Source: Methanomassiliicoccales archaeon
GTDB lineage: Archaea; Thermoplasmatota; Thermoplasmata; GCA-020350865
Direction of reading: 5' to 3'
Assembly: GCA_020347705.1 (NCBI GenBank)
Contig: CP070739.1
Coordinates: 2,446,834-2,491,851, forward strand
Length of the DNA stretch: 45,018 nucleotides
Every line of letters starts with the position of its first letter. Position 1 is the stretch's first letter. The position numbers and the translations under genes were made by a program. Below the pieces are notes generated by a model. It searched no databases and was not told where the DNA came from. It was given only the letters and a program-made list of their open reading frames with translations. Shown here in pieces: positions 19,801 through 40,988 of the stretch.

Positions 19801-21288
19801 GTGATAACCTATTCCCTCGATTCTGCACCCTCGGGCATGGAAATCGACTCCATGGGTATAATCAATTGGACACCAAACGATCTTCAGGCATCATATACGT
19901 TCAATGTTATTGTCAATGTATCGGATGGCGAGGAATTCGATTTACAGATCTTCGATATCGATGTAACCAACTTAAACGATGAACCCGAGATAGTCTCCAC
20001 ACCCGTCACATCTGCTCTCGAGGATCATCAGTATACCTACGACGTCAACGCAAACGACGTGGACCAGGGAGATGTGCTAACGTACAAACTCGATATTGCA
20101 CCCCAAGGTATGACCATCAATGAAGAAAGCGGTGTAATCTCGTGGCTTCCAACAAATGATGATGTCGGAGAGAACAGAGTGAGAGTCAATGTTAGCGATG
20201 TTGCAGGCTATTATCATACACAAGAATTTACCCTCATCGTCACCAATACCAATGATAAGCCTTTTTTGGAACCAATAGGTGAATTGGTTGCAACAGAGGA
20301 TCAGCTGTTTGAATATCAGGTTGTGGCAACTGATGTGGATTCGGGTGATGTGCTGAGTTTCTATGATGATTCAGGATTATTTCAGATAGACAAAGACACC
20401 GGTATAATATTCTTTACACCTTCCAACGATGATGTGGGAACCCACACTGTGAAAGTTACAGTAAAGGATGAAGATGGTGCCATGGCCAACGAAACCGTAA
20501 CCTTCAAGGTCTTAAATGCAAACGATCCGCCTGTCCTGGATTTCATCAGCAATTGGCAGGCAACAGAAGATAAGGAGTTCACATTGACCATCACGGCCGA
20601 CGACATTGATGCAGATGATTCAATGACATTCTCTGATAACACAACATTATTTGATATCGACCCGAACACAGGTGAGATAACATTTACTCCGAAAAATGAA
20701 GATGTGGGAGTGCATTTGGTCAATATCTCGGTTGTGGATGAAAATGGGTTAATAGATTTTCAAGAAGTTACTTTCATAATAGAGAATACAAACGATCCAC
20801 CCTCAATAGACCGAGAAGGCGCTCCAGATGCGACCGTTGATTTTGAGTTGTCCACAGGAGGGACTTTCACATACAAAATCAATGTAGAGGACGTAGACAC
20901 GGGCGATACTTTGACTTTCAGTGATGATACAGACCTGTTCGATATAGATCCAAATACCGGAGAGATTTCATTTACACCAACTAAAGATGATGTTGGAACC
21001 CATACAGTCACTATAACCGTTACCGATAGCGAGGGAGATACCGATTCCCTGATCATGACATTCGAGGTGGTTGGCGAAAAGGAGGAGGGAGTCGATTTAA
21101 TATGGTTGATGTTGTCGATATTAGTGGTAATAATTGTCATTGTTATTCTGTACTTTGGATGGAAAAGGAAAAGAGCTACATCCAATGAGGAGGTCATGGT
21201 AGTGGAAGAATCACCCGATAAGGTGAATGAAATACCAAAACCAGCGGACTTGCCCCCTCCACCCCCGCCGCCTCCTCCCCCTCCATAA
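16837..21288 (+). CDS. Giant surface adhesin-like protein: TM/signal + TIGR03790-like domain with inserted CBM-like module + CARDB + 2 PKD + 6 cadherin-like repeats + TM + poly-Pro tail
   Basis: TIGR03790-like motifs: VLVIRNLNSP...TTKGVPLRV...ASVDSEL...VTRFTG...GDPKLEP. CARDB: GDSIDITATFENRGPV...ESNNIA. PKD: WDFGDGS and WYFGDGN. The six repeats each end in xNDxP. TM: LIWLMLSILVVIIVIVILYFGW. An AAGGAGAG RBS is present. Confidence 0.85.
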   Translation: MAYWPKQRSSSIPEGRNGPSIIILGLIFLLLIGCLHIFDGEVIQIERESENRNDFRLDPRENDIQLPDSQKMKTTTRSQPEYYDLISYDDVLVIRNLNSPISMQIADYFQAARNISNSHICNISTLTIEVVSRTVFENEIRGPIEDFIVNNGLLGQINYIVTTKGVPLRVLQDANAWDTASVDSELTMILGPYQSGIGQPFYVNNPYFDPPTYQEFSWSLYGIFLVTRFTGYDWDDIKPLIDKPEMSIGRKGTFVLDVDPRKDGGGYEVGNTWMRDANVSLTAKGFDVVLDETNTFLTGNENVSGYCSWGSNDGSWNYGVNQNYGFETDSNGDDLPDNWLLERDFGNDDIDRNNTRKIGSWSLRINRSVVNTNYSAASQNVTIKPGVRYFLKGQVNFSSCSGGKGAHLRIEAYNGLDLLVWEKNGNPRTSPPDLWRSLNQVIYEPIDGVTKLCVSVIFSEASGEGYFDDVRLVEIKPDNTWIPGAIVETYVSTGGRSFTYGTQYGQSLVADLIMDGVTGTKGYVYEPFLDACAHPDIYLDAYTDGFKLAESYYMASVWIGWMDVVIGDPKLEPYDSDIIPDLEIVSQNISFSEEMPGEGDSIDITATFENRGPVRVSNITVEFWAGDPGSGSLLGSKIVDVEGFDSNSTSIVWDTGGYGGFHNITVFLDAKDIYFELSESNNIANRSIAVHTGPPTADAGKDDSVNEDSQYTFNASASTDNTSIENYTWDFGDGSLGYGEYPTHTYTLNDTYEVVLNVTNVFGFWDQDTMNISVNNVIPTADAGEDESGIEGQPLTFNASGSWDTPSDIDTLNYTWYFGDGNIGFGMEVTYAFQDNGTYNVTLEVRDDDGAKRNDTLNVTLSNSDPQITQLSSQISQEDSIFTIQIYATDVSGDTITFFDNSTLFTIDPVSGEISFTPQNEDVGDHLINITAFDEDGGEGYMEFLLTVENTNDPPHIVSTPITDATEETLYQYQVVVEDDDLLVSEYEVITYSLDSAPSGMEIDSMGIINWTPNDLQASYTFNVIVNVSDGEEFDLQIFDIDVTNLNDEPEIVSTPVTSALEDHQYTYDVNANDVDQGDVLTYKLDIAPQGMTINEESGVISWLPTNDDVGENRVRVNVSDVAGYYHTQEFTLIVTNTNDKPFLEPIGELVATEDQLFEYQVVATDVDSGDVLSFYDDSGLFQIDKDTGIIFFTPSNDDVGTHTVKVTVKDEDGAMANETVTFKVLNANDPPVLDFISNWQATEDKEFTLTITADDIDADDSMTFSDNTTLFDIDPNTGEITFTPKNEDVGVHLVNISVVDENGLIDFQEVTFIIENTNDPPSIDREGAPDATVDFELSTGGTFTYKINVEDVDTGDTLTFSDDTDLFDIDPNTGEISFTPTKDDVGTHTVTITVTDSEGDTDSLIMTFEVVGEKEEGVDLIWLMLSILVVIIVIVILYFGWKRKRATSNEEVMVVEESPDKVNEIPKPADLPPPPPPPPPPP
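19423..21075 (+). repeat. Six tandem ~92-aa cadherin-like (dystroglycan-type/He_PIG-like) domain repeats inside the adhesin gene
   Basis: A recurring pattern is NDxPxI...ATEDxxFxYQVxAxDVDxGDxLTFxDxxxLFxIDPxTGEIxFTPxNxDVGxHxVxIxVxDxxG...FxVxN. The repeats are diverged at the DNA level. Confidence 0.7.
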
Positions 21289-22905: not shown

Positions 22906-23445
22906 TTATTCTTTTATGATCTCCAAACTCAAGGTTTCAAAGGCTTTGTTGACATTCTCTCCTGTCTTGGCGCTTGAGGAGAAGACAGCAGATTTTTCGT
23001 ATTTGGCGGCGAATTCACCGAATTCATCCAATGTGAACTGGGCTTTGTTCTCAAGATCGGATTTATTGGCAAGGAATATAATAGGCACCTTGCCCGTGAC
23101 ATTGAAGGCCGACTCAATCCAACCGTCGAGTTCCTCCATGGTTTCTTTATTAGTAATATCACAAACCGCTATCAATCCCTGAGCTCCGTAGAAATATGCC
23201 TCCTGGAGTAACTCCCTGAATCCCTTCTGACCCATGATGTCCCATATCAGTATTGTCACATTTACTTTATCTCCCTTGGAAGGATGTTTGATTGTGACCT
23301 CCTTTTTAGTTATCTTGGTGCCTAATGTTGTGATATATTTGCCATCGAATGCATCGAAAACGAATCTTTTAATTAGACTGGTTTTTCCAACTGCTCCTTC
23401 ACCCACCAGGCAAATCTTCAACTTGATAATTTTGCTATCGGGCAT
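22906..23445 (-). CDS. Ras-superfamily small GTPase (Rab/Rup-like), 179 aa
   Basis: All five G boxes are present: G1 GEGAVGKT, G2 TTLGT, G3 WDIMGQ, G4 NKSD, G5 SAKTG. ATG 23445 is preceded by AAAGGAGGGGAG. There is no C-terminal Cys prenylation motif. Confidence 0.88.
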   Translation of the reverse strand: MPDSKIIKLKICLVGEGAVGKTSLIKRFVFDAFDGKYITTLGTKITKKEVTIKHPSKGDKVNVTILIWDIMGQKGFRELLQEAYFYGAQGLIAVCDITNKETMEELDGWIESAFNVTGKVPIIFLANKSDLENKAQFTLDEFGEFAAKYEKSAVFSSSAKTGENVNKAFETLSLEIIKE

Positions 23446-23745
23446 TTTCTCCCCTCCTTTCGGGACTTGGAAATTCCAATTTATGACACAATGATGTAAT
23501 GCTCTCATCATTAATAAAACCTTTCAACCACGAGATTATTTTACATATTTATGCTCACACCCTTTATAATAAATAGATATATTAGTTGAAAATATTCCAA
23601 AAGGGGAATATATGGCCTTTTTTATCTGGTCTGGCGTGTAACAGAGCATCTGTAAAATCACACCACAATCTATTTAGATGAGTGAAACATTTTAGTTTAC
23701 AGGAAGTCGGAAACTAATACTATCTCTTCAAAAGGAGATGATAAC

Positions 23746-28539: not shown

Positions 28540-28953
28540 TTGAAATCACTTACACAGCAAACAAGAAAAATCGAGAAAAGGACTTGGGTGGAGAAGGTAA
28601 CAGACGATACCAACTCATGGCTGCTGGCAAGAAACCTTCTTAGGGAGGGACATTTTGAGGATGCGGCTCAGCAATATTTAGAAGACGCTTCTGAGCAGAA
28701 AGAGAAAAACGTCCTGAGAGCAGCGTTGAGCATAAGCGCTGCTGCGAGATGCCTGGCTTCCATTGGTAAGACCCAGGAATCGTCCGATCTTTTCCTAAAA
28801 GCTGGCATGTTATACGAAAGTGCAAGAGAATCTGAAAACAGCGATCAATCATACACAGACTGGATATCGGAGAGAATCTTCTATTGCCAGAGGAGAGCCT
28901 CACACCAAGAGAACGAGAAGCTTTCAGTGGAAAAACCTACCGTGGAAAAATAA
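28540..28953 (+). CDS. Small helical (TPR-like?) hypothetical protein
   Basis: The TTG start has a G8 RBS-like run upstream. The protein is 137 aa, predicted all-helical, with no TM. It ends 15 nt upstream of the PelF-like start. Confidence 0.4.
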   Translation: MKSLTQQTRKIEKRTWVEKVTDDTNSWLLARNLLREGHFEDAAQQYLEDASEQKEKNVLRAALSISAAARCLASIGKTQESSDLFLKAGMLYESARESENSDQSYTDWISERIFYCQRRASHQENEKLSVEKPTVEK

Positions 28954-28967
28954 TCAGGGGGAATCGA

Positions 28968-30413
28968 TTGAAGGTGCTCTTTCTAGTCTCAGGAGTCTAT
29001 CCGCACTACCGCGGAGGGGTTTCAACATGGTGTGATCTCATTGTGAATGGACTTCCTGAGATCGATTTTGATGTGGTAAGCGTAGTATCAAATCCTCATG
29101 TGGAGATCAGATACGAATTACCTCCCAACGTAAAAGATGTGGTGACCATCCCTTTGTGGGGATCTGAAAGACCAGAAGAGTACAACCACGTAAGGCCCTT
29201 TAGATTTTTCTTAAATAGCCTTGATACATCGAACTCATCCGTAAATAAATATTTCATTCCTTATTTTCACGACTTTATTAAAGAAATTATCGCAGGTGGT
29301 AACAATTCGCAACTGATAGGCGATTCCTTTTATGGTATGCATCAATACTTAAGGGAACATGATTATAAGAAATGCTTCCAAAGCGAGCCTGTTTGGGAGT
29401 GTTTTATTTCGCTGTTGAAAGAAAATGAATTTTTATCTCAACTCAATATGTATCAATCCATCAATATCCTCAGAACTATGGGACGTTTCCTTCATGTTCT
29501 TTCTTATCGACCAAAAAAGGTGGATTTGTGCCACTCTGCTATCGCCTCTGTGGCAGGCATTGTCGGTATAATGACACATTATGAGTACGGTACGCCCAAT
29601 ATTCTCACTGAGCATGGCGTATATTACAGGGAGAGACTCCTTGACCTCATCAATCAACCGCTGCAGTTCCAGGCGAAATTCATTTGGGAGAATTTCTATA
29701 AGGCTCTGGCCAGAGTGAATTACCATTTTGCAGACAAGATCTATCCTGTATGCAGCTTCAATTCCCGCTGGCAACAGGAATTCGGATTTCCGGAAAGCAA
29801 AATCGACGTCATTTATAACGGAGTGGATAGTAATTTCTTTGCTCCTATGGACCTCTCTGATAAAGGGGATGACCCCTCTGTGGCAGCGGTCATAAGAATC
29901 GACAGGCTGAAGGATACACTCAATTTGATAAGAGCGATGAAGTATGTTGTGGATGAAATCCCGAATGCAAAATGCAGAGTATACGGCCCTTCTCCTGACA
30001 AGGACTATGCAAAACTTTGTATAAGGATAAGGAAGGAGTTGGGATTGGAGAATGCTGTCAGGTTCGAAGGTTACACCACTGAGCCGGAAAAGTCGTACAA
30101 TATGGGAGATGTAATCGTTATGTCCAGCATTTCCGAGGGATTTCCATTCGCTCTAATAGAGGCCATGGCCACTGGAAAGGCGATAGTTGCAACTAATGTA
30201 GGTGGAATGGCTGAGGCTCTCGGAGGTACAGGGCTCATGGTCCCCTCGAGGTCCCCGAGTCAACTTGGAAAGGCTATACTAAAACTCCTGAAAAATCCCG
30301 AGTTAAGGGAGGAACTCGGTAAAAAATCCCGAGAATTGGCCGTCAGGGATTATTCGATAGAGGGTTTCCTGGATAGGTATAGAGAGGTTTATAATGGATA
30401 CGCAGGCTCGTGA
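28968..30413 (+). CDS. PelF-like glycosyltransferase (DUF3492-type N-domain + GT4 Glycos_transf_1)
   Basis: The N-terminus LKVLFLVSGVYPHYRGGVSTWCDLIVNGLPEIDF matches my recollection of the EGTYPYxxGGVSxWxxxLIxGLPE DUF3492 signature. The GT4 C-domain reads SISEGFPFALIEAMATGKAIVATNVGG. TTG 28968 has AGGGGG upstream; the ORF opens earlier, at 28884. Confidence 0.75.
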   Translation: MKVLFLVSGVYPHYRGGVSTWCDLIVNGLPEIDFDVVSVVSNPHVEIRYELPPNVKDVVTIPLWGSERPEEYNHVRPFRFFLNSLDTSNSSVNKYFIPYFHDFIKEIIAGGNNSQLIGDSFYGMHQYLREHDYKKCFQSEPVWECFISLLKENEFLSQLNMYQSINILRTMGRFLHVLSYRPKKVDLCHSAIASVAGIVGIMTHYEYGTPNILTEHGVYYRERLLDLINQPLQFQAKFIWENFYKALARVNYHFADKIYPVCSFNSRWQQEFGFPESKIDVIYNGVDSNFFAPMDLSDKGDDPSVAAVIRIDRLKDTLNLIRAMKYVVDEIPNAKCRVYGPSPDKDYAKLCIRIRKELGLENAVRFEGYTTEPEKSYNMGDVIVMSSISEGFPFALIEAMATGKAIVATNVGGMAEALGGTGLMVPSRSPSQLGKAILKLLKNPELREELGKKSRELAVRDYSIEGFLDRYREVYNGYAGS

Positions 30414-31998
30414 CCTCGAGGGAAAGGATCAAATTCTTATAGATTCCATCGCAAGAACCGTTTCCGAGGTTGAGGGGCACCCAAAGGACCATTTGGAAGT
30501 TGCTGTCATTCTAGAGATTTTGGGTTATACCATCCAGGATGCGAATGATGCAGGATACCCCAATATATTTGAATTGGCCAAGGATATTTACGAAACCATT
30601 CCTCACTTATCAGTGGAAGATGTTATTGAGCAAGTAGAGGAGGAGCAGCCAGGCGGCATGCTTCTGTTTTTTGCTGGGATGTTTTACAATTTGGGATGGA
30701 TGATCATGTTACTTTCCCTCTTTCTCGGTGGCCAGTCACTTTGGGCCGCAAAGGACCTGCCTGTCCATATCTCAACTGGTATCGGTATGGGTGTACTTCT
30801 TGGCCTGGTCTCCACTGGGGGAATCCAGCAATTCACGGCTTGGAAATTGATATACTATCAAGGGCAGGGGAATAAACCCCTTGCAAAATTCATCATGAGA
30901 AGGAACCTAATCGTAGGAACACTGATCATTCTTACAACATTGGGGCTATTTGTCTTAATCAACATCTTGGCACTTTCATTCCCCTTACAGGTTATTCTCA
31001 TCACTCTGTATTTTTTTACTATGATAGCAGTGTACAGGTTGTTTGCAACGCCCGTTTTCGCTTTCAGAAGATTCAAGGCGCTCTTGGTCATATCATTCAC
31101 GGCATTGGCAGTGATGTTCATCTCCTATTTCGTGTTTGCATCCTTTGGGATGGACAGGGTAAGGGCTGTGATCGCCTCTCAGAGCCTTGGACTCGGGATA
31201 CTCATATTCACAAGCGGCTATTTTTCTTATAGATATATTTTCTCTGAGCGGGAGGTGAGAGATGAAGATGAACCGCCATTCTATGCTCGCCCTGACCTGC
31301 CAAAGAACGTTAAACCTCCAAGATACTGGGTCCTTTTATACGAGGGGATTCCGTTTATCCTTTACGGAACTTTGTACTTCGTATTCATTTTCGGGGACAG
31401 GCTCGTGTCCTGGATGGGTGCAGGTCCCATGTTCATAAACTACAACCGAACTTATCAAATTGGAGTCGATCTGGCTCTCTTGCTTTTAATTCCCATAACC
31501 GGTGTTAAGTTCACCTATCTTTACCGATTGTCAGGTTATCTAGAGAAAAATCTTAGTGAGACCGATTTGGCCGACCATCCCAAGTTCAATGTCGCTCTTT
31601 CTAAATTTTATAAAAAAATGGTGATAGGGATATCTTTTTTCGGGGGTCTCTTCGTTCTCTCGGCCTTTCTTTTGGGTGATTGGATAGTTGAAGCAGGAGG
31701 CGGAAATGAGGAAAGTACCACAGTTTTTAAATGGGCGCTTTTGGGTATATTCTTTTTCAGTCTATTTCTAATGAACTCTGTTTTTTCATTTTGCTTCAGA
31801 AAACATAAAGCCATAGTTGTTGTCCTCGCCATTGGATGCTTCTTTGCCTATAGCCTAAGTTATATTTTCTCCACCGTAAATCACTGGTATTCCGTGTTCG
31901 GTTTCCTACTCAGCTCATTTTTCTTGGCTGCTGCATCCTTTTTCTTGATATTTGATATGCTGAAAAAAGCAGATTATGTCTATTATCAAGCGTTCTAG
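30394..31998 (+). CDS. 12-TM polytopic membrane protein, candidate PelG-like/MOP-type polysaccharide exporter
   Basis: An ~85-aa soluble N-terminus is followed by about 12 hydrophobic helices, counted by eye. The ATG overlaps the PelF-like gene by 20 nt. Confidence 0.55.
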   Translation: MDTQARDLEGKDQILIDSIARTVSEVEGHPKDHLEVAVILEILGYTIQDANDAGYPNIFELAKDIYETIPHLSVEDVIEQVEEEQPGGMLLFFAGMFYNLGWMIMLLSLFLGGQSLWAAKDLPVHISTGIGMGVLLGLVSTGGIQQFTAWKLIYYQGQGNKPLAKFIMRRNLIVGTLIILTTLGLFVLINILALSFPLQVILITLYFFTMIAVYRLFATPVFAFRRFKALLVISFTALAVMFISYFVFASFGMDRVRAVIASQSLGLGILIFTSGYFSYRYIFSEREVRDEDEPPFYARPDLPKNVKPPRYWVLLYEGIPFILYGTLYFVFIFGDRLVSWMGAGPMFINYNRTYQIGVDLALLLLIPITGVKFTYLYRLSGYLEKNLSETDLADHPKFNVALSKFYKKMVIGISFFGGLFVLSAFLLGDWIVEAGGGNEESTTVFKWALLGIFFFSLFLMNSVFSFCFRKHKAIVVVLAIGCFFAYSLSYIFSTVNHWYSVFGFLLSSFFLAAASFFLIFDMLKKADYVYYQAF

Positions 31999-32026
31999 TA
32001 GCGAGGTGGAAAAGAGAGGTTCGTCT

Positions 32027-33655
32027 CTATGTTTCCTCGCTACCATAAGTAATGAATTCATCGTTTTCTGAAAGGTATTGCGCTTTTATCCAGTTCGGGC
32101 TTCTGGCCATATCCGATATACGGACTTCGTCAATTGTGCCATTGAATGGAATATACACTTTGACATCGTCAAAATATATCTCGTATGGGTCGGTGTGATC
32201 ATAACCTAAAAGCGCTAACCAGGTATAATCCATAAGATCACCGTCTGTTGTCTCAACATATAAGACATCGTTAACCCATACCTTGATTCGATTGGTATTT
32301 CCTTCCGTCGTAATTTGTGTTTTGAGAGTATACCATGTATTGTTTTGGATGGTCCATCCCAGTGGTTCGGTTGCTATATTCGTCCAAAGATTCTCAACCA
32401 CCTTATTCAAGACAACATTACTGTACTGCGTATCCAACACCACTTCGTATTTATCTTCAGTGGTATCGTATCTGGGACAAATGAAGGCTCCCCCGGTAAG
32501 AGACGTGGTCTTTACTCTTGCTTCGGCGATACAATCTTTTGCTTCGAAGCCCTTGATTATCGCAAATGTTTCATTTCTAGGAACCGGACAACTCCAATGA
32601 AATTCCTCATTTTCGATGATCTGTGTCGAATAAGGACCGTAGTCCTCAAATTCCCAGGTTGGAGCGCCGTCAGGTGAATTGGCATACTTGGAGAAATCGT
32701 CCATAAATATGTGTTTTCCAACGTAGAGGTTGTTGGTTAGGAAAGGGGAAATTGAGCCGGTATGTACGCTTTCCCCTTCTAAATTGCCATTTAAATAGAG
32801 TCTTTGGTTGTATCCATCAAAAGTTAAAACAACACGATACCAATTATCTGCAGACAGTATTGTGGTTCCAATGACTGGATACCAATTGCTTTCGTCATAG
32901 ATAGCACCCACTAATTTGTATTCGTAATTTATCTCCAGATAGTATGCTCCCGGTTTCGATGCAATTATGCCAGGTTTCAACGAATCCAACCTAACCCAGG
33001 CTTCGATTGTAATGGTATCGGTGATATTCAAGCTATTATCATTCCCGCAATCTATAAAACCTTCATTGCCATCGAACCCGCCTGCACCATCTATCTTGCC
33101 GGTGTTCACCTGATTCAATCCACTAAAAGGATTTCCGTCATTATCATTTGAAGTGGAATCGTATCTGAGCCCAGAATTCTCCTGCAAATGCTGAACCATC
33201 ATGTAATTTGTATCATAGGTTCCGATCTCGTCTTGACCATCGGGAGCGTCTGAATTGCCATAATACATCCAAATATAGTCTATATTCGACTCAGCATCTA
33301 TCTTTGGTACGTTTACCCAAACAAAGCTTTTTCCTGAGGAATCCCAATCTTCGATATGGTATTTTAACTCGGTACTACCATCGGCATCGATAAACCGCAG
33401 GTCTTTACCATCGGATTTAGCTTTGGAATAATCAAAATTCGATGAACTCAAAACAACCAAAGCAGGAAAATCAATTAACGCTTCAGTTTGTCCAGCATTG
33501 TCGAAGTTCAATTTCTTTCGATAAGACCAATTATCGTTCCACCAATCCCGCTCTCTATCATCTGTCTTTTGACTCTCTATGAAGTAATACCCCCCGATGG
33601 CGCTGATAATTACGATTATCACGATTACGATCGCAATTAAAACTCTCTTATTCAT
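32027..33655 (-). CDS. Secreted/anchored DUF2341 + LamG (concanavalin A-like lectin) domain protein
   Basis: N-terminal TM. DUF2341 pattern: WSYRKKLNFDN...DLRFIDADGSTELKYHIEDWD...VWVNVPKI...YIWMYYGN. LamG-like: ITIEAWVRLDS...WYRVVLTFDGYNQRLYLNG. Confidence 0.7.
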   Translation of the reverse strand: MNKRVLIAIVIVIIVIISAIGGYYFIESQKTDDRERDWWNDNWSYRKKLNFDNAGQTEALIDFPALVVLSSSNFDYSKAKSDGKDLRFIDADGSTELKYHIEDWDSSGKSFVWVNVPKIDAESNIDYIWMYYGNSDAPDGQDEIGTYDTNYMMVQHLQENSGLRYDSTSNDNDGNPFSGLNQVNTGKIDGAGGFDGNEGFIDCGNDNSLNITDTITIEAWVRLDSLKPGIIASKPGAYYLEINYEYKLVGAIYDESNWYPVIGTTILSADNWYRVVLTFDGYNQRLYLNGNLEGESVHTGSISPFLTNNLYVGKHIFMDDFSKYANSPDGAPTWEFEDYGPYSTQIIENEEFHWSCPVPRNETFAIIKGFEAKDCIAEARVKTTSLTGGAFICPRYDTTEDKYEVVLDTQYSNVVLNKVVENLWTNIATEPLGWTIQNNTWYTLKTQITTEGNTNRIKVWVNDVLYVETTDGDLMDYTWLALLGYDHTDPYEIYFDDVKVYIPFNGTIDEVRISDMARSPNWIKAQYLSENDEFITYGSEET

Positions 33656-33828
33656 CTATTTCCCCGTTTAAAATGGGATATTGTCACATATATTTGAGCT
33701 TTTTGCCAACTGTTCAATACTCTTGTGCATTTATTTTACAATGAATATCAACCTGAGCCCATTCTTAATTAGCATATGTTCTTTAAAAAATTTTTGAGGT
33801 TTATTACGGGTTACTCATTCCCCCAATT

Positions 33829-35958
33829 TTAATGAGTATCTTTTTCCTCATCGCCTTCGTTAATTTTGTTACCTTCCCCGGTCTTTTCACCCTCATTTTT
33901 CTTCTCAGTGTTTTCTTTCTCAGGTTCATTTTCTGATCCTTCATCATCGGATTTTTCTTCTGCTTCGGTCTTTTCGTGTTCATCGTCTTTTTCCACGGTC
34001 TTCTGCTTCTCTATTGGAGGTGCCCCAGGAGCGGGCTTTCTAGAGGCTTTTCTAGTAAATAGAATAACTACTATCAACAGTATAATAATTATAATCAAGG
34101 CGATCACTAGCCAGAACCAGTTTTGCTCGTAGATGGATTCAGGTTCTTCTTCAGGAACGGAATTATCGACGATTACATCCACCCTTAATTCAACTGAATA
34201 GTCCATTCCATCAAAAGAACGGACAAATATCTCATGTTCCCCATCGGATAGGGAGGTGGTATCCACTTCATAACTCCAAGGAGCGGTGCCTATGGCCCGA
34301 ATCCACTCACCATCATCTGTTTTAACCTCCACCCTCTCCACCATTCCATCGGAATCAAGAGCTGAGCCTGTGATCTCAGAGGTACCAGATATTATAGCAT
34401 CCGAGGCCGGGGCCGTAATATTGCAGCTCGGAGGATCATTTGTTTCGAGCATTGGGGGAGGTATGAAAGGACTCATCAAGGGATATCGGTCCTCTCCAGT
34501 TCCTGCTAAAATTTCATATGGAGTATCACCTATGCCATCGCCACCGTATTGGTCTTGGTTAGAACCGCTTTTTTTGTCCCCCCCGATATAATCATTCCAA
34601 TAGTTGCCGCCAGAAAGATATCCATTATCCCATTGATTGTTATCAATGGTATTGTCAAAGGCTTGATATCCGTTGTTTATTATATTATTGTGATAGATTT
34701 GATTGTTGTTGCTGAACTCCCAATTATAGATACCGTACTCATTATTCGAGGAAATTGTGTTGTTTGTAATTTTATTATACGTCGAAGAGAAGAGTTCTAT
34801 GCCGTCATCACCATTCTTCAGAAAATTGTTATTGGTGATGATGTTTTCATTGGAGGATTCGAATATTATGCCGTCATCGCTGTTTGAGGAGAGGATGTTA
34901 TCGGCCACCCTGAGGCCATCAGATTGAGAGATTTTAATGCCGCATTCTTCGTTGTCCAGGGCATTGTTGTTGGTGAAGATGATGTTATCAGACTGGTCTA
35001 TGCGATAACCGTCTTCGTTAGAGATGGCATCATTATTGATGATCGTGTTATCATCAGAGGACTCGAGATGGATACCATAATCGTTATCCAAGACACTATT
35101 ACCATCAATGACATTGTTACTGGAGCTAGAAATCTGGATGCCTTCTTCGTTGCTCGAGAGAATGTTTTTCTCAACCTTGTTGTTACCAGAATTATTTAGA
35201 TAAATTCCGTCATCATTGTTTAGTACGGTGTTATTTCCAACCCTGTTCCAATTTGAAGATTCCAGATTGATACCGTCACCATCATTGTGTGAGATGGTAT
35301 TGTGGTCAATGATATTGGTGTTTGATTTGGAAATCTGAATACCATAATCGTTTTCGAACATATTGTTGTTGCTGATGATATTTCCGTCCGAGTGCGTTAG
35401 GTAGATACCATCAGCGTCATTTGAGGAGATTTCATTGTTGGAGATCTCATTATTTCCAGATGAATAATGAAAGAAGATACCATAGAAATTGTTTGTGATG
35501 ATATTGTTTGCTACATAGCAGTCCTGTGTAATATGGAGTTCTACACCAGCATCGCCCCAATCGGAACCGCTATTTGTTATTGTGAAGCCTTTGATGGTAA
35601 CCGAATCCACAGTTACATGAACCACATCGCTGGTTTCATTTCCATCGATTATGGTGGTGTCTTTGTTTTCTCCGATTAAGGTTATAGATTTATTGATAGT
35701 GATATTTTCAAGGTAAGTTCCTTCGTATATGTATATTATATCCCCAGAGGTCGCATTATCTATTGCCTCTTGTATGCTCGTGTAATTTTGAGCGCCCAAT
35801 CCTCCCACATTAAGGGTAGCTCCACCAGCAGTCGATACTGGATTTCTATTTGCAGGTAAAAGTAATATAACTGTTGTGATTAAAAATATGCTCACTACTA
35901 TTGATAGACACCTTACACTGTGTGCTCTGATTGTGGTATTAAATCCTTTTTTTAGCAT
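33829..35958 (-). CDS. Right-handed parallel beta-helix (NosD/CASH, PbH1 repeat) surface protein with Ig-like domain, C-terminal TM and long acidic tail
   Basis: About 14 repeats of NxIxxNxxDGIxLxxSxxNxI are present. One Ig-like module (ITAPASDAIISGTSEITGSALDSDG...DGEHEIFVRSFDG) is of the same type as the repeats in the divergent giant gene. The TM WFWLVIALIIIIILLIVVILF is followed by a ~75-aa Lys/Glu/Asp tail. Confidence 0.8.
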   Translation of the reverse strand: MLKKGFNTTIRAHSVRCLSIVVSIFLITTVILLLPANRNPVSTAGGATLNVGGLGAQNYTSIQEAIDNATSGDIIYIYEGTYLENITINKSITLIGENKDTTIIDGNETSDVVHVTVDSVTIKGFTITNSGSDWGDAGVELHITQDCYVANNIITNNFYGIFFHYSSGNNEISNNEISSNDADGIYLTHSDGNIISNNNMFENDYGIQISKSNTNIIDHNTISHNDGDGINLESSNWNRVGNNTVLNNDDGIYLNNSGNNKVEKNILSSNEEGIQISSSSNNVIDGNSVLDNDYGIHLESSDDNTIINNDAISNEDGYRIDQSDNIIFTNNNALDNEECGIKISQSDGLRVADNILSSNSDDGIIFESSNENIITNNNFLKNGDDGIELFSSTYNKITNNTISSNNEYGIYNWEFSNNNQIYHNNIINNGYQAFDNTIDNNQWDNGYLSGGNYWNDYIGGDKKSGSNQDQYGGDGIGDTPYEILAGTGEDRYPLMSPFIPPPMLETNDPPSCNITAPASDAIISGTSEITGSALDSDGMVERVEVKTDDGEWIRAIGTAPWSYEVDTTSLSDGEHEIFVRSFDGMDYSVELRVDVIVDNSVPEEEPESIYEQNWFWLVIALIIIIILLIVVILFTRKASRKPAPGAPPIEKQKTVEKDDEHEKTEAEEKSDDEGSENEPEKENTEKKNEGEKTGEGNKINEGDEEKDTH

Positions 35959-36236
35959 TTTTATGCCTCCCCCAGTTTTTTATTGTATTGCCTAAATAAC
36001 TTGGTTTTTTGGATTGTATTAGGGTTTTATAAAGGTTTCGAGCCTTAAAAGAAGGAGTTTTAACCTATGTATAGATACTACTTAGGATTTAGATTAAAGC
36101 ATTCAGGTGTGGGATTTTTAGTCTATTACTTACACTTGTTCTTTGCTCAAAATACTAAAAGGTGACTAATATATACCGTCATTTTAACTTATAGAAGCAA
36201 AAAAACTTAATATCAATAAAACCCTGTTCCAAAGGA

Positions 36237-36251
36237 TTTATATAAATATAA
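36237..36251 (+). promoter_or_regulatory. TATA-like box abutting the giant ORF
   Basis: TTTATATAAATATAA. If this box is used, transcription would start near 36270 and the real start codon would be GTG 36297 rather than GTG 36252. Confidence 0.3.
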
Positions 36252-39200
36252 GTGGGTGTTGTAAATTGGGTGATACTTGTGTCATACCATAAAAAAGTGG
36301 GCATTAAATCAGAATTTTTAAGAAAACCGTGGACGAGTTTGATAGGATATTTTATACTGCTATCACTCATTATTTCTGCAGTTTTGGTGATTCCGGTACC
36401 AGTTGCTGCAAACAACCCACCCGGTATCGCGATTGTTGAACCTGATCATGGGGCGACGGTTAGTGGAGTTGTGGTGGTCTGGATGGTGGCCTGGGACCCT
36501 GACGGGAATGATGAAATCCAGGAAGTGTGGGTCAAGATCGATGGTGGAGAGCTACTTAATGCAACCTATAATCACACCGATGCCGAGGGCCAGTGGTGGT
36601 ACTACGAATGGGACACCACAGAAGTTGAGGACGGATGGCATCATATCACGGGCATCACGTTTGACGGCATTGATGACGCTCTTGATATAATAGAGGTTTA
36701 TGTTGATAATGTTCCGGACAACAATCCACCAGGTATCGATATCGTCGAGCCTGGAGGAGGAGAAACAGTGAGTGGGGTTGTTGTAGTTTGGATGGTGGCC
36801 TGGGATCCAGATGGGAATGATCAGATAGAGGAAGTATGGGTCAGGATCGATAATGGAGAACTCCGTAATGCTACCTATAACCATACCGATGGTGAGGGCC
36901 AGTGGTGGTACTACGAATGGGATACAACAGAGGTGGAGGATGGATGGCATACAATTAAGGCCATCACGTTCGACGGTGTCGATGACGCTCATGATTTAAT
37001 AGAGGTCTTTGTGGACAATGAGCCGGATAACAGCCCGCCTGGTATCGCGATTGTAGAGCCTGATCATGGGGCGACGGTTAGCGGAGTGGTCGTAATCTGG
37101 ATGGTTGCTTGGGATTCGGACGGGAATGATCAGATACAGGAAGTATGGGTCAGGATCGATGGCGGAGAGCTACTCAATGCAACCTATAACCATACCGATG
37201 GTGAGGGCCAATGGTGGTATTACGAATGGGACACCACGGAGGTAGAGGACGGATGGCATGATATCACGGGCATCACATTCGACGGCATCGATGATGCGCA
37301 TGACGTAATAGAGGTCTTGGTGGACAATGAGCCGGACAACAATCCCCCACACGTGGAGATAATGGAACCCGAACAAGGGGCAACGGTAAGCGGTGTTGTG
37401 GAAGTGTGGATACGTGCCTGGGATGCTGATGGTCCCGATGACATAGAGGCCGTGTTCGTGAAGATCGATAACGGTAATTGGAACTCGGCCACATTCGTAG
37501 AAATCGAAGGTGAATACTCATGGTGGGTGTGGGAATGGGATACTACAGAGGTTGAAGACGGTGAGCATCACATCTACGCCAGGGGTTGGGACGGTGAGGA
37601 TCACTCTGAGGATGATGTAATATGGGTTATCGTGGACAATGAGCCGGACAACAATCCACCCGGCATCGCGATCGTTGAGCCAGAAGATGGAGCGACTGTT
37701 AATGGAATAATCGTTATCTGGATGGTTGCTTGGGATCCAGATGGTAATGACCAGATAGAGGAAGTGTGGGTCAGAATCGATAATGGAGAACTGCGTAATG
37801 CAACCTATAACCATACCAATGGTGAGGGCCAGTGGTGGTACTACGAATGGGACACCACAGAAGTGGAGGACGGATGGCATTTAATAAAGGCCATCACATT
37901 CGACGGTATTGACGATGCTCATGATGCAATTGAGGTCTTTGTTGATAACATTCCAGAAAACAACCCCCCCGGTATCGCGATCGTTGAGCCGGAAGATGGA
38001 GCGACGGTTAGTGGAATAATCGTTATCTGGATGGTTGCCTGGGATCCAGATGGGAATGATCAGATAGAGGAAGTGTGGGTAAGAATCGACAATGGAGAGC
38101 TTCGAAATGCAACCTATAACCATACCAATGGCGAGGGACAATGGTGGTATTACGAATGGGATACTACAGAGGTGGAGGACGGATGGCATTTAATCAAAGC
38201 CATCACTTACGACGGTGTCGATGACGCTCATGATGCAATAGAGGTTTTTGTGGACAATGAGCCTGACAATAATCCACCGCACGTTGAGATCATGGAACCC
38301 GAACAAGGGGCAACGGTAAGCGGTGTTGTGGAAGTGTGGATACGTGCCTGGGATGCGGATGGTCTCGATGACATAGAGGCCGTGTTCGTGAAGATCGATA
38401 ACGGTGATTGGTACGAGGCCAACTTCGTAGAAATCGAAGGTGATTACTCATGGTGGGTGTGGGAGTGGGACACAACAGAGGTTGAGGACGGTGAGCATCA
38501 CATCTACGCCAGGGCATGGGACGGTGAAGACCATTCCGAGGACGATGTGATATGGGTCATAGTGGACAATGAGCCAGACAACAATGCACCGGGCATCGCG
38601 ATCGTAGAACCTGATCATGGCGCAACGGTTAGCGGAGTTGTCGTAGTCTGGATGGTTGCTTGGGACCCTGACGGCAACGATGAGATCCAGGAAGTGTGGG
38701 TCAGGATCGATAATGGAGAGCTACGAAATGCAACCTATAATCACACCGATGCCGAGGGCCAGTGGTGGTACTACGAATGGGATACCACAGAGGTTGAAGA
38801 TGGATGGCATTCAATCAAGGCCACCTGCTTCGACGGCATCGATGATGGGCATGATATAATAGAAGTCTTTGTGGACAATGTTCCGGACAACAGCCCACCG
38901 CATGTGGAGATAATGGAACCCGAACATGGGGCAACGGTCAGCGGTGTTGTGGAGGTGTGGATACGTGCCTGGGATGCGGATGGTCTCGATGACATCGAAG
39001 CCGTGTTCGTGAAGGTCGACAACGGTGAATGGCATCAAGCTACCTTCGTAGAAATAGAAGGCGATTACTCATGGTGGGTGTGGGAATGGGATACCACAGA
39101 GGTTGAAGATGGCGAGCATCATATCTTCGCCAGGGCCTGCGACGGTGAAGAACACTCCGAGGACGATGTGATAGGGGTCATCGTGGATAACGTTCCAGAG

Positions 39201-40988
39201 AACAATGCACCCGGTATCGAAATAGTGGAGCCAGATGATGGTGAAACGGTGAGCGGTGTAATCGAAATCTGGATGGTGGCTTGGGACCCGGATGGCAACG
39301 ATGAAATCGAAAACGTTTGGGTAAAGATCGATAATGGTAATTGGCATGAGGCCACCTTCGTTGAGATAGACTCTGAAGGCTCCTGGTGGGTGTTCGAGTG
39401 GGATACCACCACCGTTGAAAACGGCTGGCATCATGTCTATGCCAAGACGACAGACGGCGAGCTGTGGGCGGACGATGTGATCGAAGTCTTTGTATATAAC
39501 CTAATAGATAATCATCCTCCATACATCGAAATCATGGAGCCTGGAAATGGTGAGACCGTTTCAGGAGTCATCGAGATATGGATGGTGGCATGGGATGCGG
39601 ACGGACTTGACGATATCGAAAATGTATGGGTAAAAATCGATGACGGACCACCTGCTGAAGCGATCTTTCATCACATTGATGGGTTAGGTTCATGGTGGGT
39701 GCTTGAGTGGGATACCACCACCGTTGAGGATGGTTGGCATCATATAACGGCCATAGTTTATGATGGTATCGATGACGGGCACGATGTCATAGAGGTGAAG
39801 GTTGACAACGACCAAACTGAGAACAGCCCACCGCAAGTTGAGATAGTGGAACCGGAACAAGGGGATACTGTAAGTGGTGTTGTGGAAGTTTGGCTCCGCG
39901 CATGGGATGCCGACGGAAAAGAGGATGTGGAGGCGGTGTTCGTGAAGATTGATGACGGTGAATGGCATGAGGCCACATTTGACGAATATGGAGGCGATTA
40001 CTCGTGGTGGGTGTGGGAGTGGGATACCACAACGGTTGAGGATGGTGAGCATCACATCTTTGCCAGGGCATGGGATGGTGAGGATCATTCTGAGGATGAT
40101 GTGATCGGGGTCATCGTGAAAAACGAGGGTGATGACGGAGGAGAAGGTGGAGGAGCTGGTGGCGGAGAAAGTGCAGGGGGGGATGGAGGAGAGAGTGAGG
40201 GCGGTTCCGGCTCATCCGAACCAGATGGCGGTTCCCCTGACGATGGCGGAGAGAGCGGCGGAGAAAGTGGTGGAGAAAGTGGTGGAGAGAGTGAGGGTGG
40301 AACAGGAACAACCGGATCAATCGGAGGCCCTGAGGAAAATAACGACGGCACCGGAGAATCAGCTTCGGATTCTGAGGCATCGTTGGATAATGATAAGGTG
40401 TCAATTAGGGATTCCGACTCAACGCAGCAATTTAACTGGATATATGTAATCATATCTCTTACCGCTGTAAGCGCTTTGGTGGCATTTTCCGTGGCTGCAG
40501 GGACTGAGGTAGGCACATTTGCACTCCTCAGTTTAATAATTCTACCGCTGTATACGAAGCTCAGTAAAAAGGAAATCCTCGATCAATTCGTTAGAGGCCA
40601 GATATTCGGATATATTAAGGTCAATCCCGGAGATAATTATACCACCATTAAAAAGAACCTGGACCTGAATAACGGAACCCTGACATATCATCTTAATGTT
40701 CTGGAGCGCGAGGGGTTAATCAAATCGTGGAACAATGGAAGCCACAAGTATTTCTATCCAAAAGGTGTAAATATTCCGGGTAACGGGGTGAAGAATCCAA
40801 GTATCCATGATGCAATTCTGAAGAGCATCAAGGATAGCCCGGGAATATCTGTCAAGGACATAGCAGCAGTTTGTGGCATTTCCCGCCAGCTAGCGAATTA
40901 TCATGTAAGAAAACTGGCTGCTTCCGGTTCAATCGCGCTGGAAAGAGGACCATTATCCAAGGTCTGCTTCCCAATAAACGTTGATTAG
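36252..40988 (+). CDS. Giant membrane protein: signal/anchor + 12 Ig-like repeats + acidic Gly/Glu/Ser linker + hydrophobic segment + tandem winged-helix (ArsR/MarR-like) module
   Basis: This is a single open frame of 1578 codons; GTG 36297 is an alternative start. The repeats fit the Big_7-like pattern IxxPxxGxTVSGxVxVxxxAxDxDG...V.VxIDxG.W..A......W.x.WDTTxVxDGxHxI. The C-terminus contains NPGDNYTTIKKNLDLNNGTLTYHLNVLEREGLIKS and SPGISVKDIAAVCGISRQLANYHVRKLAASGSIAL. Confidence 0.85.
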   Translation: MGVVNWVILVSYHKKVGIKSEFLRKPWTSLIGYFILLSLIISAVLVIPVPVAANNPPGIAIVEPDHGATVSGVVVVWMVAWDPDGNDEIQEVWVKIDGGELLNATYNHTDAEGQWWYYEWDTTEVEDGWHHITGITFDGIDDALDIIEVYVDNVPDNNPPGIDIVEPGGGETVSGVVVVWMVAWDPDGNDQIEEVWVRIDNGELRNATYNHTDGEGQWWYYEWDTTEVEDGWHTIKAITFDGVDDAHDLIEVFVDNEPDNSPPGIAIVEPDHGATVSGVVVIWMVAWDSDGNDQIQEVWVRIDGGELLNATYNHTDGEGQWWYYEWDTTEVEDGWHDITGITFDGIDDAHDVIEVLVDNEPDNNPPHVEIMEPEQGATVSGVVEVWIRAWDADGPDDIEAVFVKIDNGNWNSATFVEIEGEYSWWVWEWDTTEVEDGEHHIYARGWDGEDHSEDDVIWVIVDNEPDNNPPGIAIVEPEDGATVNGIIVIWMVAWDPDGNDQIEEVWVRIDNGELRNATYNHTNGEGQWWYYEWDTTEVEDGWHLIKAITFDGIDDAHDAIEVFVDNIPENNPPGIAIVEPEDGATVSGIIVIWMVAWDPDGNDQIEEVWVRIDNGELRNATYNHTNGEGQWWYYEWDTTEVEDGWHLIKAITYDGVDDAHDAIEVFVDNEPDNNPPHVEIMEPEQGATVSGVVEVWIRAWDADGLDDIEAVFVKIDNGDWYEANFVEIEGDYSWWVWEWDTTEVEDGEHHIYARAWDGEDHSEDDVIWVIVDNEPDNNAPGIAIVEPDHGATVSGVVVVWMVAWDPDGNDEIQEVWVRIDNGELRNATYNHTDAEGQWWYYEWDTTEVEDGWHSIKATCFDGIDDGHDIIEVFVDNVPDNSPPHVEIMEPEHGATVSGVVEVWIRAWDADGLDDIEAVFVKVDNGEWHQATFVEIEGDYSWWVWEWDTTEVEDGEHHIFARACDGEEHSEDDVIGVIVDNVPENNAPGIEIVEPDDGETVSGVIEIWMVAWDPDGNDEIENVWVKIDNGNWHEATFVEIDSEGSWWVFEWDTTTVENGWHHVYAKTTDGELWADDVIEVFVYNLIDNHPPYIEIMEPGNGETVSGVIEIWMVAWDADGLDDIENVWVKIDDGPPAEAIFHHIDGLGSWWVLEWDTTTVEDGWHHITAIVYDGIDDGHDVIEVKVDNDQTENSPPQVEIVEPEQGDTVSGVVEVWLRAWDADGKEDVEAVFVKIDDGEWHEATFDEYGGDYSWWVWEWDTTTVEDGEHHIFARAWDGEDHSEDDVIGVIVKNEGDDGGEGGGAGGGESAGGDGGESEGGSGSSEPDGGSPDDGGESGGESGGESGGESEGGTGTTGSIGGPEENNDGTGESASDSEASLDNDKVSIRDSDSTQQFNWIYVIISLTAVSALVAFSVAAGTEVGTFALLSLIILPLYTKLSKKEILDQFVRGQIFGYIKVNPGDNYTTIKKNLDLNNGTLTYHLNVLEREGLIKSWNNGSHKYFYPKGVNIPGNGVKNPSIHDAILKSIKDSPGISVKDIAAVCGISRQLANYHVRKLAASGSIALERGPLSKVCFPINVD
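36411..40122 (+). repeat. Tandem coding repeat array: 12 units of 309 or 312 bp, two interleaved subtypes
   Basis: I verified unit starts codon by codon at 36411, 36720, 37029, 37338, 37650, 37959, 38268, 38580, 38889, 39201, 39510 and 39822. Each begins AAC/AAT (Asn) followed by N/S/H-P/A-P. Confidence 0.95.
40578..40985 (+). other. Tandem winged helix-turn-helix module (C-terminal ~135 aa of the giant ORF)
   Basis: LDQFVRGQIFGYIKVNPGDNYTTIKKNLDLNNGTLTYHLNVLEREGLIKSWNNGSHKYFYP, then IHDAILKSIKDSPGISVKDIAAVCGISRQLANYHVRKLAASGSIALERGPLSKVCF. Both show the helix-turn-recognition helix-wing spacing of ArsR/MarR-type wHTH domains. Confidence 0.6.

Follow-up and report, generated by a model that had tools for sequence, protein, structure and literature searches.

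We analysed a 45,018-nucleotide stretch of the genome of a Methanomassiliicoccales archaeon (contig CP070739.1, positions 2,446,834 to 2,491,851; hereafter the window), which contains at 36252..40988 on the forward strand a single open frame of 1578 codons without interruption. The encoded protein (the window protein) is probably a membrane-tethered one-component transcription regulator; that it binds DNA, what it senses, which genes respond and how these are coupled we infer throughout. It is a large-ectodomain member of a big, paralog-expanded family in which the C-terminal module is constant and the ectodomain variable. A first-pass annotation, made from the letters of the window alone, had described five parts in this frame, namely an N-terminal signal or anchor, an Ig-like repeat ectodomain, an acidic linker, a hydrophobic membrane stretch and two winged helix-turn-helix (wHTH) segments, and all five were found to be present and in that order.

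The C-terminal module consists of two predicted winged helices, the first at 40566..40760 on the forward strand (HVO_0163_N, HTH_20 or ArsR-like, with recognition helix NGTLTYHLNVLE) and the second at 40803..40985 on the same strand (HTH_24 or MarR_2-like, with recognition helix SRQLANYHVRKL), each of which was identified by Pfam, by a PDB profile search and by AlphaFold2. HTH_HVO_0163_N (PF24266) and HTH_20 match amino acids (aa) 1447-1505 above the Pfam gathering scores, aa numbers here and below being counted from codon 36252 of the 1578-codon frame; PF24266 scored 38.5 bits with the whole protein and 46.0 bits with the module alone against a cut-off of 31, and HTH_20 scored 46 bits. HTH_24 and MarR_2 match aa 1521-1567, at the extreme C-terminus and likewise above the gathering scores (HTH_24 with 45-53 bits at aa 1521-1559, 52.9 at best, and MarR_2 with 42.8 bits). 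An initial AlphaFold2 run with 11 sequences was too shallow (predicted local distance difference test, pLDDT, 65) and was replaced by a 35-sequence alignment of the module (pLDDT 87.6, predicted TM-score 0.60), with which two complete winged helices, each with three helices and a beta-wing, were predicted at aa 1439-1503 and 1518-1574, the pLDDT being >90 in the first and 93-97 in the second. Foldseek against the PDB returned the tandem winged-helix proteins RPC34, TFIIIC, ESCRT-II, SelB, ScpB and P. furiosus PF0095, and single domains could be superposed on MarR and ArsR proteins with a root mean square deviation of 1-3 A. When the module profile was compared with PDB sequences, DNA-binding regulators only were retrieved: the first winged helix matched 5duk (E=2e-10), while the second matched MarR (3bpv/3bpx), AdcR, YgaV, SlyA, ArsR and SmtB. 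By sequence, the module groups with the DNA-binding ArsR/MarR proteins and not with the protein-binding tandem winged-helix proteins. The two ArsR/MarR-type domains proposed in the first-pass annotation are thus in agreement with AlphaFold2, Foldseek and the PDB profile alike, and the lack of a wHTH fold, which had been named as the finding that would count against them, was not encountered.

ArsR/SmtB regulators have a single wHTH of ~100 aa with metal-binding sites and act as homodimers, while MarR proteins carry the wHTH between N- and C-terminal dimerisation helices, are ~140-150 aa long and are obligate dimers. Assignment as an ArsR/SmtB metalloregulator was rejected (NCBIfam HTH_metalloreg, 34.3 bits versus a cut-off of 55), the HTH core alone being similar. 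The MarR and MarR_2 cores scored 28-43 bits (cut-offs of 24.6 and 27), and AlphaFold2 predicted no dimerisation helices flanking the second winged helix.

Upstream of the module lies a single predicted transmembrane helix, WIYVIISLTAVSALVAFSVAAG (40437..40502, forward strand), which runs from out to in and was delimited by insertion energy, AlphaFold2 and a family profile. It is followed by a juxtamembrane segment (40503..40565, forward strand) that, according to the family profile and AlphaFold2, comprises T-E-x-G-(K), a short hydrophobic helix and a P-L-Y-x-K-x-K-K motif. It had originally been left undecided whether the ~40-aa hydrophobic stretch forms one helix or two; the stretch is indeed present (aa 1396-1435), but its second segment is too short for a membrane pass. 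Only aa 1396-1417 yields 19-aa windows with a summed insertion energy near or below 0, and no 19-residue window of the second segment falls under about +2.9. In a family profile anchored on the invariant P-L-Y (n=204 relatives), positions -33 to -15 are essentially free of charge (19 positions), positions -14 to -9 form a polar T-E-(E/V)-G-K-(K/Y) turn, and only about nine hydrophobic positions separate this turn from P-L-Y, with Lys at -5 in 22% of cases; from P-L-Y on, the profile reads P-L-Y-(T/S)-(K/R)-x-(K/R)-(K/R)-(E/D)-(E/D)-V-L-D-H-F-x-R-G. Counted over 293 relatives, the first of the two uncharged runs is 22 residues long at the median and the second 12 (5th-95th percentile 8-16, never 18), and the mean number of Lys plus Arg is 1.3 in the 15 residues before the helix versus 4.2 after P-L-Y.

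The window protein matches the family signature of a charge-free helix ~33 aa before P-L-Y-x-(K/R), followed by (K/R)(K/R)(E/D)(E/D)VLDHFxRGxIYGY (...AAGTEVGTFALLSLIILPLYTKLSKKEILDQFVRGQIFGYI), with Thr in place of the usual Lys after T-E-x-G and a second segment of 16 aa against the family median of 12. Because this replacement lengthens the second segment to 16 residues, the region takes on the look of one 40-aa hydrophobic stretch. AlphaFold2 places the membrane helix at aa 1396-1417 (pLDDT >90) and a second helix at aa 1419-1435. Two membrane passes were ruled out by the family statistics (n=204 and n=293) and by the insertion-energy windows; the number of passes after the ectodomain is odd, so that the even number that had been thought fatal to an intracellular module is not what the family statistics indicate. 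Since one membrane pass follows the ectodomain and Lys and Arg are more abundant after the helix, the winged-helix module is concluded to be cytoplasmic, attached to a single membrane pass by a short juxtamembrane helix. The module is basic (isoelectric point, pI, 9.6, net charge +9), as it is in the family (median pI 9.75).

The ectodomain (36411..40130, forward strand) was identified by Pfam as an array of tandem Big_7 Ig-like repeats (PF17957, 12 stretches, E=1.1e-81), in keeping with the twelve Ig-like repeats of ~103 aa that had been read from the letters. Splitting the translation at the recurring N-N-P-P-G/H motif gave 12 units of 103-104 aa (aa 54-1293) that comprise two main subtypes and two divergent units, and Tandem Repeats Finder reported a period of 309 bp in the array. 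Repeat pairs share 59-91% DNA identity, the longest exact sharing being 65 bp. As the closest pairs are more alike in protein than in DNA (for example, 95% versus 87% identity), the array is selected coding sequence and no assembly stutter. The ectodomain has a pI of 4.05 (family median 4.3) and contains 12 N-x-S/T sequons versus 5.3+/-2.3 in shuffled sequences; the sequons sit in 7 of the 12 repeats (the NATYNHT subtype), five of which have both NAT and NHT. Additionally, every repeat has a W-D-x-D-G-x-D acidic loop, which may be akin to the Ca2+-binding loops of rigid Ig-like adhesin stalks. Between the array and the membrane helix lies an acidic low-complexity stalk of Gly, Glu and Ser with four copies of GGES (40131..40436, forward strand; 102 aa, aa 1294-1395), corresponding well to the ~100-aa linker first described; it has 26 D/E versus 2 K/R and includes coding microsatellites of 24 bp x2.7 and 12 bp x4.2. 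The linker is absent in the orthologs L002, L003, L004, L082, P0001, P0004, P0008 and P0009, in which ~10-30 aa lead from the last repeat to the membrane helix. Neither an exact 42-mer scan nor a protein-pattern scan of JGI metagenome contigs gave a match to it, and no near-identical contig was found in them.

With a repeat array of this size, a chimeric frame created by misassembly, or a decaying pseudogene, has to be considered. Such arrays do break assemblies, as is evident from the Ns in the L002 frame and from the N gap in the ortholog of CP070726.1; furthermore, one ortholog has an in-frame stop (L082), and the linker is known from the window only, with no match in the JGI metagenome contigs. 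Conversely, the frame of the window gene is intact over 4.7 kb, its repeats share at most 65 bp exactly, the excess of protein over DNA identity in close repeat pairs is that of purifying selection, and the promoter, the Shine-Dalgarno-like motif, the start, the signal and the ectodomain-helix-wHTH junction are all kept in independent orthologs. The junction from Big_7 through the membrane helix to the tandem wHTH was found in one frame in the independently assembled P0001, P0004, P0008, P0009, L003, L004 and L002, with full-length ortholog frames of 942 aa (L003), 853 aa (L004) and 2460 aa (L002, which contains Ns). Synteny is conserved as well (GlmU-like, GlmS, wHTH surface gene, PCNA on the minus strand, KaiC-like). 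An artefact is thus highly improbable and, for the fusion itself, largely refuted.

The only ortholog that is split is that of L082 (JGI 3300041077, Ga0452210_001105), which has 14 repeats in one frame throughout and carries at 7980-8003, within the last Big_7 repeat, a TAG in place of the conserved Trp codon TGG; gene callers split it into a Big_7 protein of 1441 aa and a membrane-helix-plus-wHTH protein of 203 aa (P0002). The TAG could be a nonsense mutation, a sequencing error or a read-through codon in a pyrrolysine-using lineage, and the split variant itself speaks for collinearity of the ectodomain and the wHTH part. Fusion by misassembly or frameshift was ruled out by the presence of the junction in independent orthologs, the sole split being this single in-frame TAG. 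At the level of sequence comparison, the gene is therefore confirmed as real and the fusion of ectodomain and wHTH as genuine; several independent orthologs have the two parts as one gene and not, as the first-pass annotation had named as its possible undoing, as separate genes. The number of repeats varies sharply among orthologs (~5-7, 12 and 14 repeats, plus the 2460-aa protein). In CP070726.1, a 'complete' genome of a Thermoplasmata archaeon, the ortholog is cut by a run of Ns inside the repeats (L001 9727-10113) and was deposited as 'partial', from which it is clear that the repeat array defeats short-read assembly even in a closed genome.

The module profile was searched against 1.84 billion representative proteins and matched 6947 protein clusters at E<=1e-3, 2872 at <=1e-10 and 777 at <=1e-30. 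The 150 best matches are 170 to 2185 aa long and, with few exceptions, have the module at their very C-terminal end. When one genome of each species was scanned with two narrow peptide patterns, 99 relatives were obtained, from which 80 loci were kept, all of them from Thermoplasmatota-type metagenome-assembled genomes (MAGs). The labels of these MAGs vary (Thermoplasmata, Methanomassiliicoccales, Methanobacteriota, Euryarchaeota, Thalassarchaeaceae or Marine Group III), and many of them have at least two to three paralogs per genome. Nearly every full-length relative has an N-terminal hydrophobic segment, mostly within the first 30 aa, and a hydrophobic window ~33 residues before P-L-Y, and identity to the module of the window protein is 36-82%. 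PF24266, HTH_24 and HTH_20 were found by Pfam scan in 63/63 representatives, the ectodomains of which contain PKD (21), CARDB (17), NPCBM_assoc (14), Ig_VWA7 (9), FixG_C (8), Big_5 (6), beta-helix (5), Big_7 (3) and DUF11 (3) domains. Several relatives exceed 1200-2400 aa, and many others have small ectodomains of ~130-150 aa. A soluble 242-aa PF24266 tandem-wHTH paralog was also observed (L001 8420-9148).

Judged by these shared features, the window protein is a bona fide member of a PF24266-containing, membrane-anchored tandem-wHTH family of Thermoplasmatota, with which it shares the signal, a variable ectodomain, one helix, T-E-x-G-K...P-L-Y-x-K and two C-terminal winged helices. It differs in that its ectodomain is among the larger ones and has twelve Big_7 repeats, a domain present in only 3/63 representatives, in that the 102-aa acidic stalk is unique to it, and in the Thr where Lys is usual after T-E-x-G. 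An archaeal family of membrane-associated proteins with two HTH domains had been mentioned in the first-pass annotation, and in substance such a family exists, as indicated by the PF24266 match and the very large number of relatives; it probably corresponds to COG3398. In contrast to this, the implied uniqueness of the architecture did not hold, since the same plan occurs in hundreds to thousands of protein clusters that, where named in public, are already called 'winged helix-turn-helix / MarR / ArsR family transcriptional regulator'. The architecture is thus common and generically annotated, and the window gene is large but ordinary within its family; an exact look-up of its protein in the assembly index gave no record.

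We read the protein as a type I membrane protein. Twelve Big_7 repeats, acidic and probably glycosylated, are exported by means of the N-terminal signal or anchor and stand on an acidic stalk, with a single helix crossing the membrane and the conserved juxtamembrane segment leading to the basic cytoplasmic two-winged-helix module. The two winged helices would constitute an intramolecular pseudo-dimer that binds DNA at the membrane, in place of the usual homodimer, and this binding would change with what the ectodomain experiences, be it contact, ligand binding, clustering or a change in envelope integrity. The strongly conserved T-E-x-G-K...P-L-Y segment would be the obvious candidate for coupling ectodomain and DNA-binding module, and envelope genes, such as the divergently transcribed beta-helix/Big_7 gene described below, would be the likely targets. 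Since the literature searched describes no characterised member of the family, it is by homology that DNA binding is predicted.

Several observations weigh against a regulatory role. The ectodomains are adhesin- or S-layer-like modules without a classical ligand-sensing domain, and would fit a structural surface protein equally well; no common operator upstream of the family genes was found by k-mer enrichment; the acidic linker, apparently peculiar to the window, could not be confirmed independently; and a literature search found no study of the membrane-anchored tandem-wHTH family. Furthermore, ScpB and ESCRT-II, in which the winged helices contact proteins and not DNA, are among the closest structural counterparts of the tandem arrangement, and the recognition-helix residues (LTYHL, NYH) are nearly invariant in paralogs with differing ectodomains, which is unexpected if each paralog controls other genes. 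The last two points also favour a structural surface protein, part of an adhesin or an envelope lattice, whose wHTH tail anchors it non-specifically to the nucleoid or to a conserved cytoplasmic partner. The ectodomain repertoire is equally typical of archaeal surface proteins (Big_7, PKD, CARDB, beta-helix, DUF11), the sharp variation in repeat number among orthologs is typical of adhesins, and neighbouring surface proteins have a plain membrane helix with a short basic or acidic tail at the same position. Such an anchoring role is nevertheless considered unlikely: by sequence, both domains are nearest to sequence-specific ArsR/MarR regulators and not to ScpB or ESCRT-II, soluble tandem-wHTH relatives exist (the 242-aa protein mentioned above), and ectodomains of only ~130-150 aa, as in many relatives, are unlikely structural components.

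Another possibility, rated as quite unlikely, is that regulated proteolysis near or within the membrane helix frees a 16-kDa tandem-wHTH fragment to reach its targets, in a manner resembling RsiW/RseA-type intramembrane proteolysis or, in eukaryotes, SREBP and Notch. Outside the domains, conservation is highest in the juxtamembrane region (Pro at the outer end, T-E-x-G inside, P-L-Y), and helix-breaking Gly or Pro near the membrane helix is typical of intramembrane-protease substrates. A 1,500-aa ectodomain would, moreover, hamper the search of the chromosome by a tethered factor, and the natural split variant of L082 could make the 203-aa membrane-helix-plus-wHTH part alone. However, no cleavage site is known, and no protease gene consistently linked to the family was identified, the 253-aa EExxK-like membrane protein present at ~8 loci having no Pfam match; additionally, the characterised archaeal and bacterial transmembrane regulators act while tethered (PMC10269533).

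Regulation by a tethered factor, the reading preferred here, has parallels in ToxR and CadC, which combine an extracytoplasmic domain, one membrane helix and a cytoplasmic winged-helix DNA-binding domain without a kinase (PMC5430869, PMC10269533). The window protein also joins an ectodomain, a single helix and a winged-helix module in one polypeptide. In ToxR/CadC, however, the DNA-binding domain is N-terminal and there is no signal peptide, which is the reverse of the order in the window protein; their DNA-binding domain is of the OmpR type (Trans_reg_C), whereas the window protein has two domains of the ArsR/MarR type and gave no Pfam match to Trans_reg_C at E<=1; and their ectodomain is a compact sensor in place of an Ig-like array. 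Because the orientation is reversed and the DNA-binding domains are of another type and two in number, the window protein is placed outside that family, though by its architecture it would appear to work in a like manner. Demey et al. (2023) define transmembrane transcription regulators (TTRs) by a predicted DNA-binding domain and at least one predicted membrane helix in the same protein, describe them as widespread in archaea and list HTH_20 and HTH_24 among their domains (PMC10269533); a predicted DNA-binding domain together with a predicted membrane helix, as required by this definition, was found in the window protein.

Among archaeal proteins, ArnR and ArnR1 of Sulfolobus acidocaldarius are the characterised membrane-bound HTH factors, and they regulate surface structures (PMC6396743, PMC13286277). 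Unlike the window protein, ArnR has an N-terminal HTH and C-terminal membrane helices and lacks a large ectodomain and a tandem winged helix, and no homology between the two was detected in any search of the analysis. Soluble HVO_0163-like regulators and P. furiosus PF0095 (PDB 2quf) likewise have two winged helices per chain, the first of which is matched by PF24266, but lack the signal, ectodomain and membrane helix of the window protein; the likeness between its module and PF0095 in Foldseek is structural only, with a TM-score of about 0.27. In the literature searched, HVO_0163 is mentioned a single time, as an 'ArsR-type' protein that hypochlorite induces (PMC10294847). At the other end of the molecule, Ig-repeat adhesins and envelope proteins, such as the neighbouring Big_7 and PKD proteins, share with the window protein the Sec signal, the tandem Ig-like array, the acidity, the sequons, the C-terminal membrane helix and the variable repeat number; ordinary members of this group end in a short charged tail, whereas the window protein ends in a basic tandem-wHTH module of 150 aa.

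The start of the gene was placed by comparison with orthologs. A promoter block at 36206..36251 (forward strand), read from the sequence and kept at the orthologous loci L003 and L004, contains on that strand a conserved upstream element (36206-36222), a TFB recognition element (BRE)-like GTTCCAAA (36226-36233) and the TATA box TTTATATA (36237-36244), its function being assigned by the established archaeal BRE/TATA consensus. The GTG at 36252 directly abuts the TATA box, and there is no in-frame ATG near the 5' end of the frame. At three orthologous loci (L003, L004 and L082), the same promoter block is followed by GGTGA and, 5 nt on in each of them, by ATG, the aligned N-termini being MSYRRKVG (L004), MSYAKKVG (L082) and MSKITKVG (L003). 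The window has the Shine-Dalgarno-like GGTGA at 36269-36273 (forward strand), then 5 nt and GTG TCA TAC CAT AAA AAA GTG from 36279, which translates as MSYHKKVG (the element as a whole spans 36269..36281). As the ortholog N-termini, the conserved GGTGA and the position of the TATA box agree, GTG 36279 is most likely the start, giving a predicted protein of 1569 aa; the open reading frame of the first-pass annotation was thus real, with its start moved from 36252.

The predicted signal peptide or signal anchor (36279..36410, forward strand) has a basic n-region, a hydrophobic core of ~21 aa and the sequence VPVAA|NN, with Kyte-Doolittle 19-aa windows of up to 2.7 and 5 K/R versus 1 D/E, and the N-terminus is conserved among orthologs. 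VPVAA|NN, which had been singled out at the outset, does fit a signal peptidase site, but the hydrophobic core is long for a cleaved signal, and cleavage or retention as an anchor are therefore both possible; the array is predicted to be exported in either case. An Rfam scan of the window found no RNA families, and the counts from a sigma-70 promoter and terminator scan equalled those of shuffled sequences, the bacterial consensus being uninformative for an archaeon.

The window belongs to a chromosome and carries core genes of archaea (proteasome alpha, SBDS, exosome Rrp4/41/42, fibrillarin and PCNA), and envelope and glycan genes lie nearby, including those for an epimerase, a 1483-aa PKD/He_PIG/Big_9 surface protein, a GlmU-like enzyme, GlmS, a GT4 glycosyltransferase and a LamG/DUF2341 protein. 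Divergent from the main gene, and sharing with it an intergenic region of 320 bp that contains weak inverted repeats only, is a gene whose product, a NosD/beta-helix surface protein, combines a single Big_7 domain with a membrane helix and an acidic tail (33829..35958, minus strand; Pfam NosD, Beta_helix, Big_7). Its Big_7 domain aligns with repeat 9 of the main gene at 38% identity over 108 aa (E=4e-9), and we infer that this neighbour is a candidate regulatory target. Such an ectodomain-neighbour match at the BLAST level was found for the window gene only, among 63 loci, and a general rule that the ectodomain resembles a neighbouring surface protein accordingly fails. Four genes between GlmS and the main gene (28884-35958) are absent at the orthologous loci L003 and L082, and this region looks like an inserted envelope-gene cassette; the four encode a GT4 glycosyltransferase that also has DUF3492, a protein of 534 aa that is without a Pfam match and has a hydrophobic region at its C-terminal end, the LamG/DUF2341 protein and the NosD/Big_7 protein.

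Linkage to envelope or uptake genes was also seen in other branches of the family. The subfamily of ~730-740 aa, with a beta-helix plus PKD ectodomain, has a Big_7-array surface gene 20-36 bp upstream on the same strand. At L005-L015 (for example, L005 3865-6279 and 6312-8540) the upstream Big_7-array protein has a membrane helix and a short basic tail; the split of domains in this subfamily is the reverse of that in the window, in which the wHTH tail is on the array protein and the beta-helix protein lies next to it. The ~340-aa subfamily adjoins a 955-977-aa SBP_bac_5 solute-binding protein, which has Big_1 domains and is itself anchored by a membrane helix at the C-terminus, and after it comes an ATP-binding cassette (ABC) permease (genes +1 and +2 at L020, L024, L025, L027, L030, L039, L053 and L059), which may represent a regulator/transporter pairing. 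While these linkages fit a local regulator, they hold within ortholog groups only. Upstream of the ~450-aa subfamily genes of L046, L068, L070, L074 and L077, the 10-bp palindrome CAAAATTTTG, or a one-mismatch variant, lies at ~50-65 bp, just upstream of the BRE/TATA TTTCAAAACATATAAATA; it may be a candidate operator or mere orthologous promoter conservation. The k-mer TCAAAAC (9/41 versus 3/278) was rejected as an operator, being the BRE-proximal promoter of two ortholog groups.

The 253-aa membrane protein already mentioned is multi-pass, contains EESFK and lies two genes upstream in the ~753-aa subfamily (L050, L052, L062, L064 and L066); it was considered as a linked PrsW-like protease and set aside, such a role being pure speculation. 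Elsewhere in the window, the 1483-aa protein (16837-21288, forward strand) has domains of the PKD, He_PIG, Big_9 and Rib-like kinds, and its membrane helix is followed by a cytoplasmic tail that ends in eleven consecutive prolines. A 201-aa small GTPase of the Ras/Roc/Arf family is encoded at 22906-23511 on the minus strand (Pfam Ras E=2.7e-33). Additionally, a 381-aa protein encoded at 4643-5788 on the forward strand has four CBS domains fused to Ribosomal_S30AE, a ribosome hibernation/modulation factor domain, and may act in ribosome hibernation in archaea.

Cultures are lacking for many Thermoplasmatota, and little has been learned of the ways in which these archaea sense their environment. 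The family described here, with its hundreds to thousands of proteins that join Ig-like, PKD or beta-helix surface domains directly to tandem winged helices, is a strong candidate for a major signalling or envelope-coupling system of these archaea. To its description the present analysis adds the one-pass topology, the cytoplasmic location of the module and a conserved juxtamembrane motif that likely carries the coupling, and the soluble 150-aa module folds with high predicted confidence. It may be, although we regard it as a long shot, that the constant helix-plus-tandem-wHTH tail with interchangeable adhesin-like heads is the main coupling of surface to chromosome in Thermoplasmatota, operating without kinases, or a tether of the nucleoid to the envelope. 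If true, this would represent a contact- or mechanosensing pathway in one polypeptide, or an envelope-nucleoid linkage, without a characterised archaeal counterpart.

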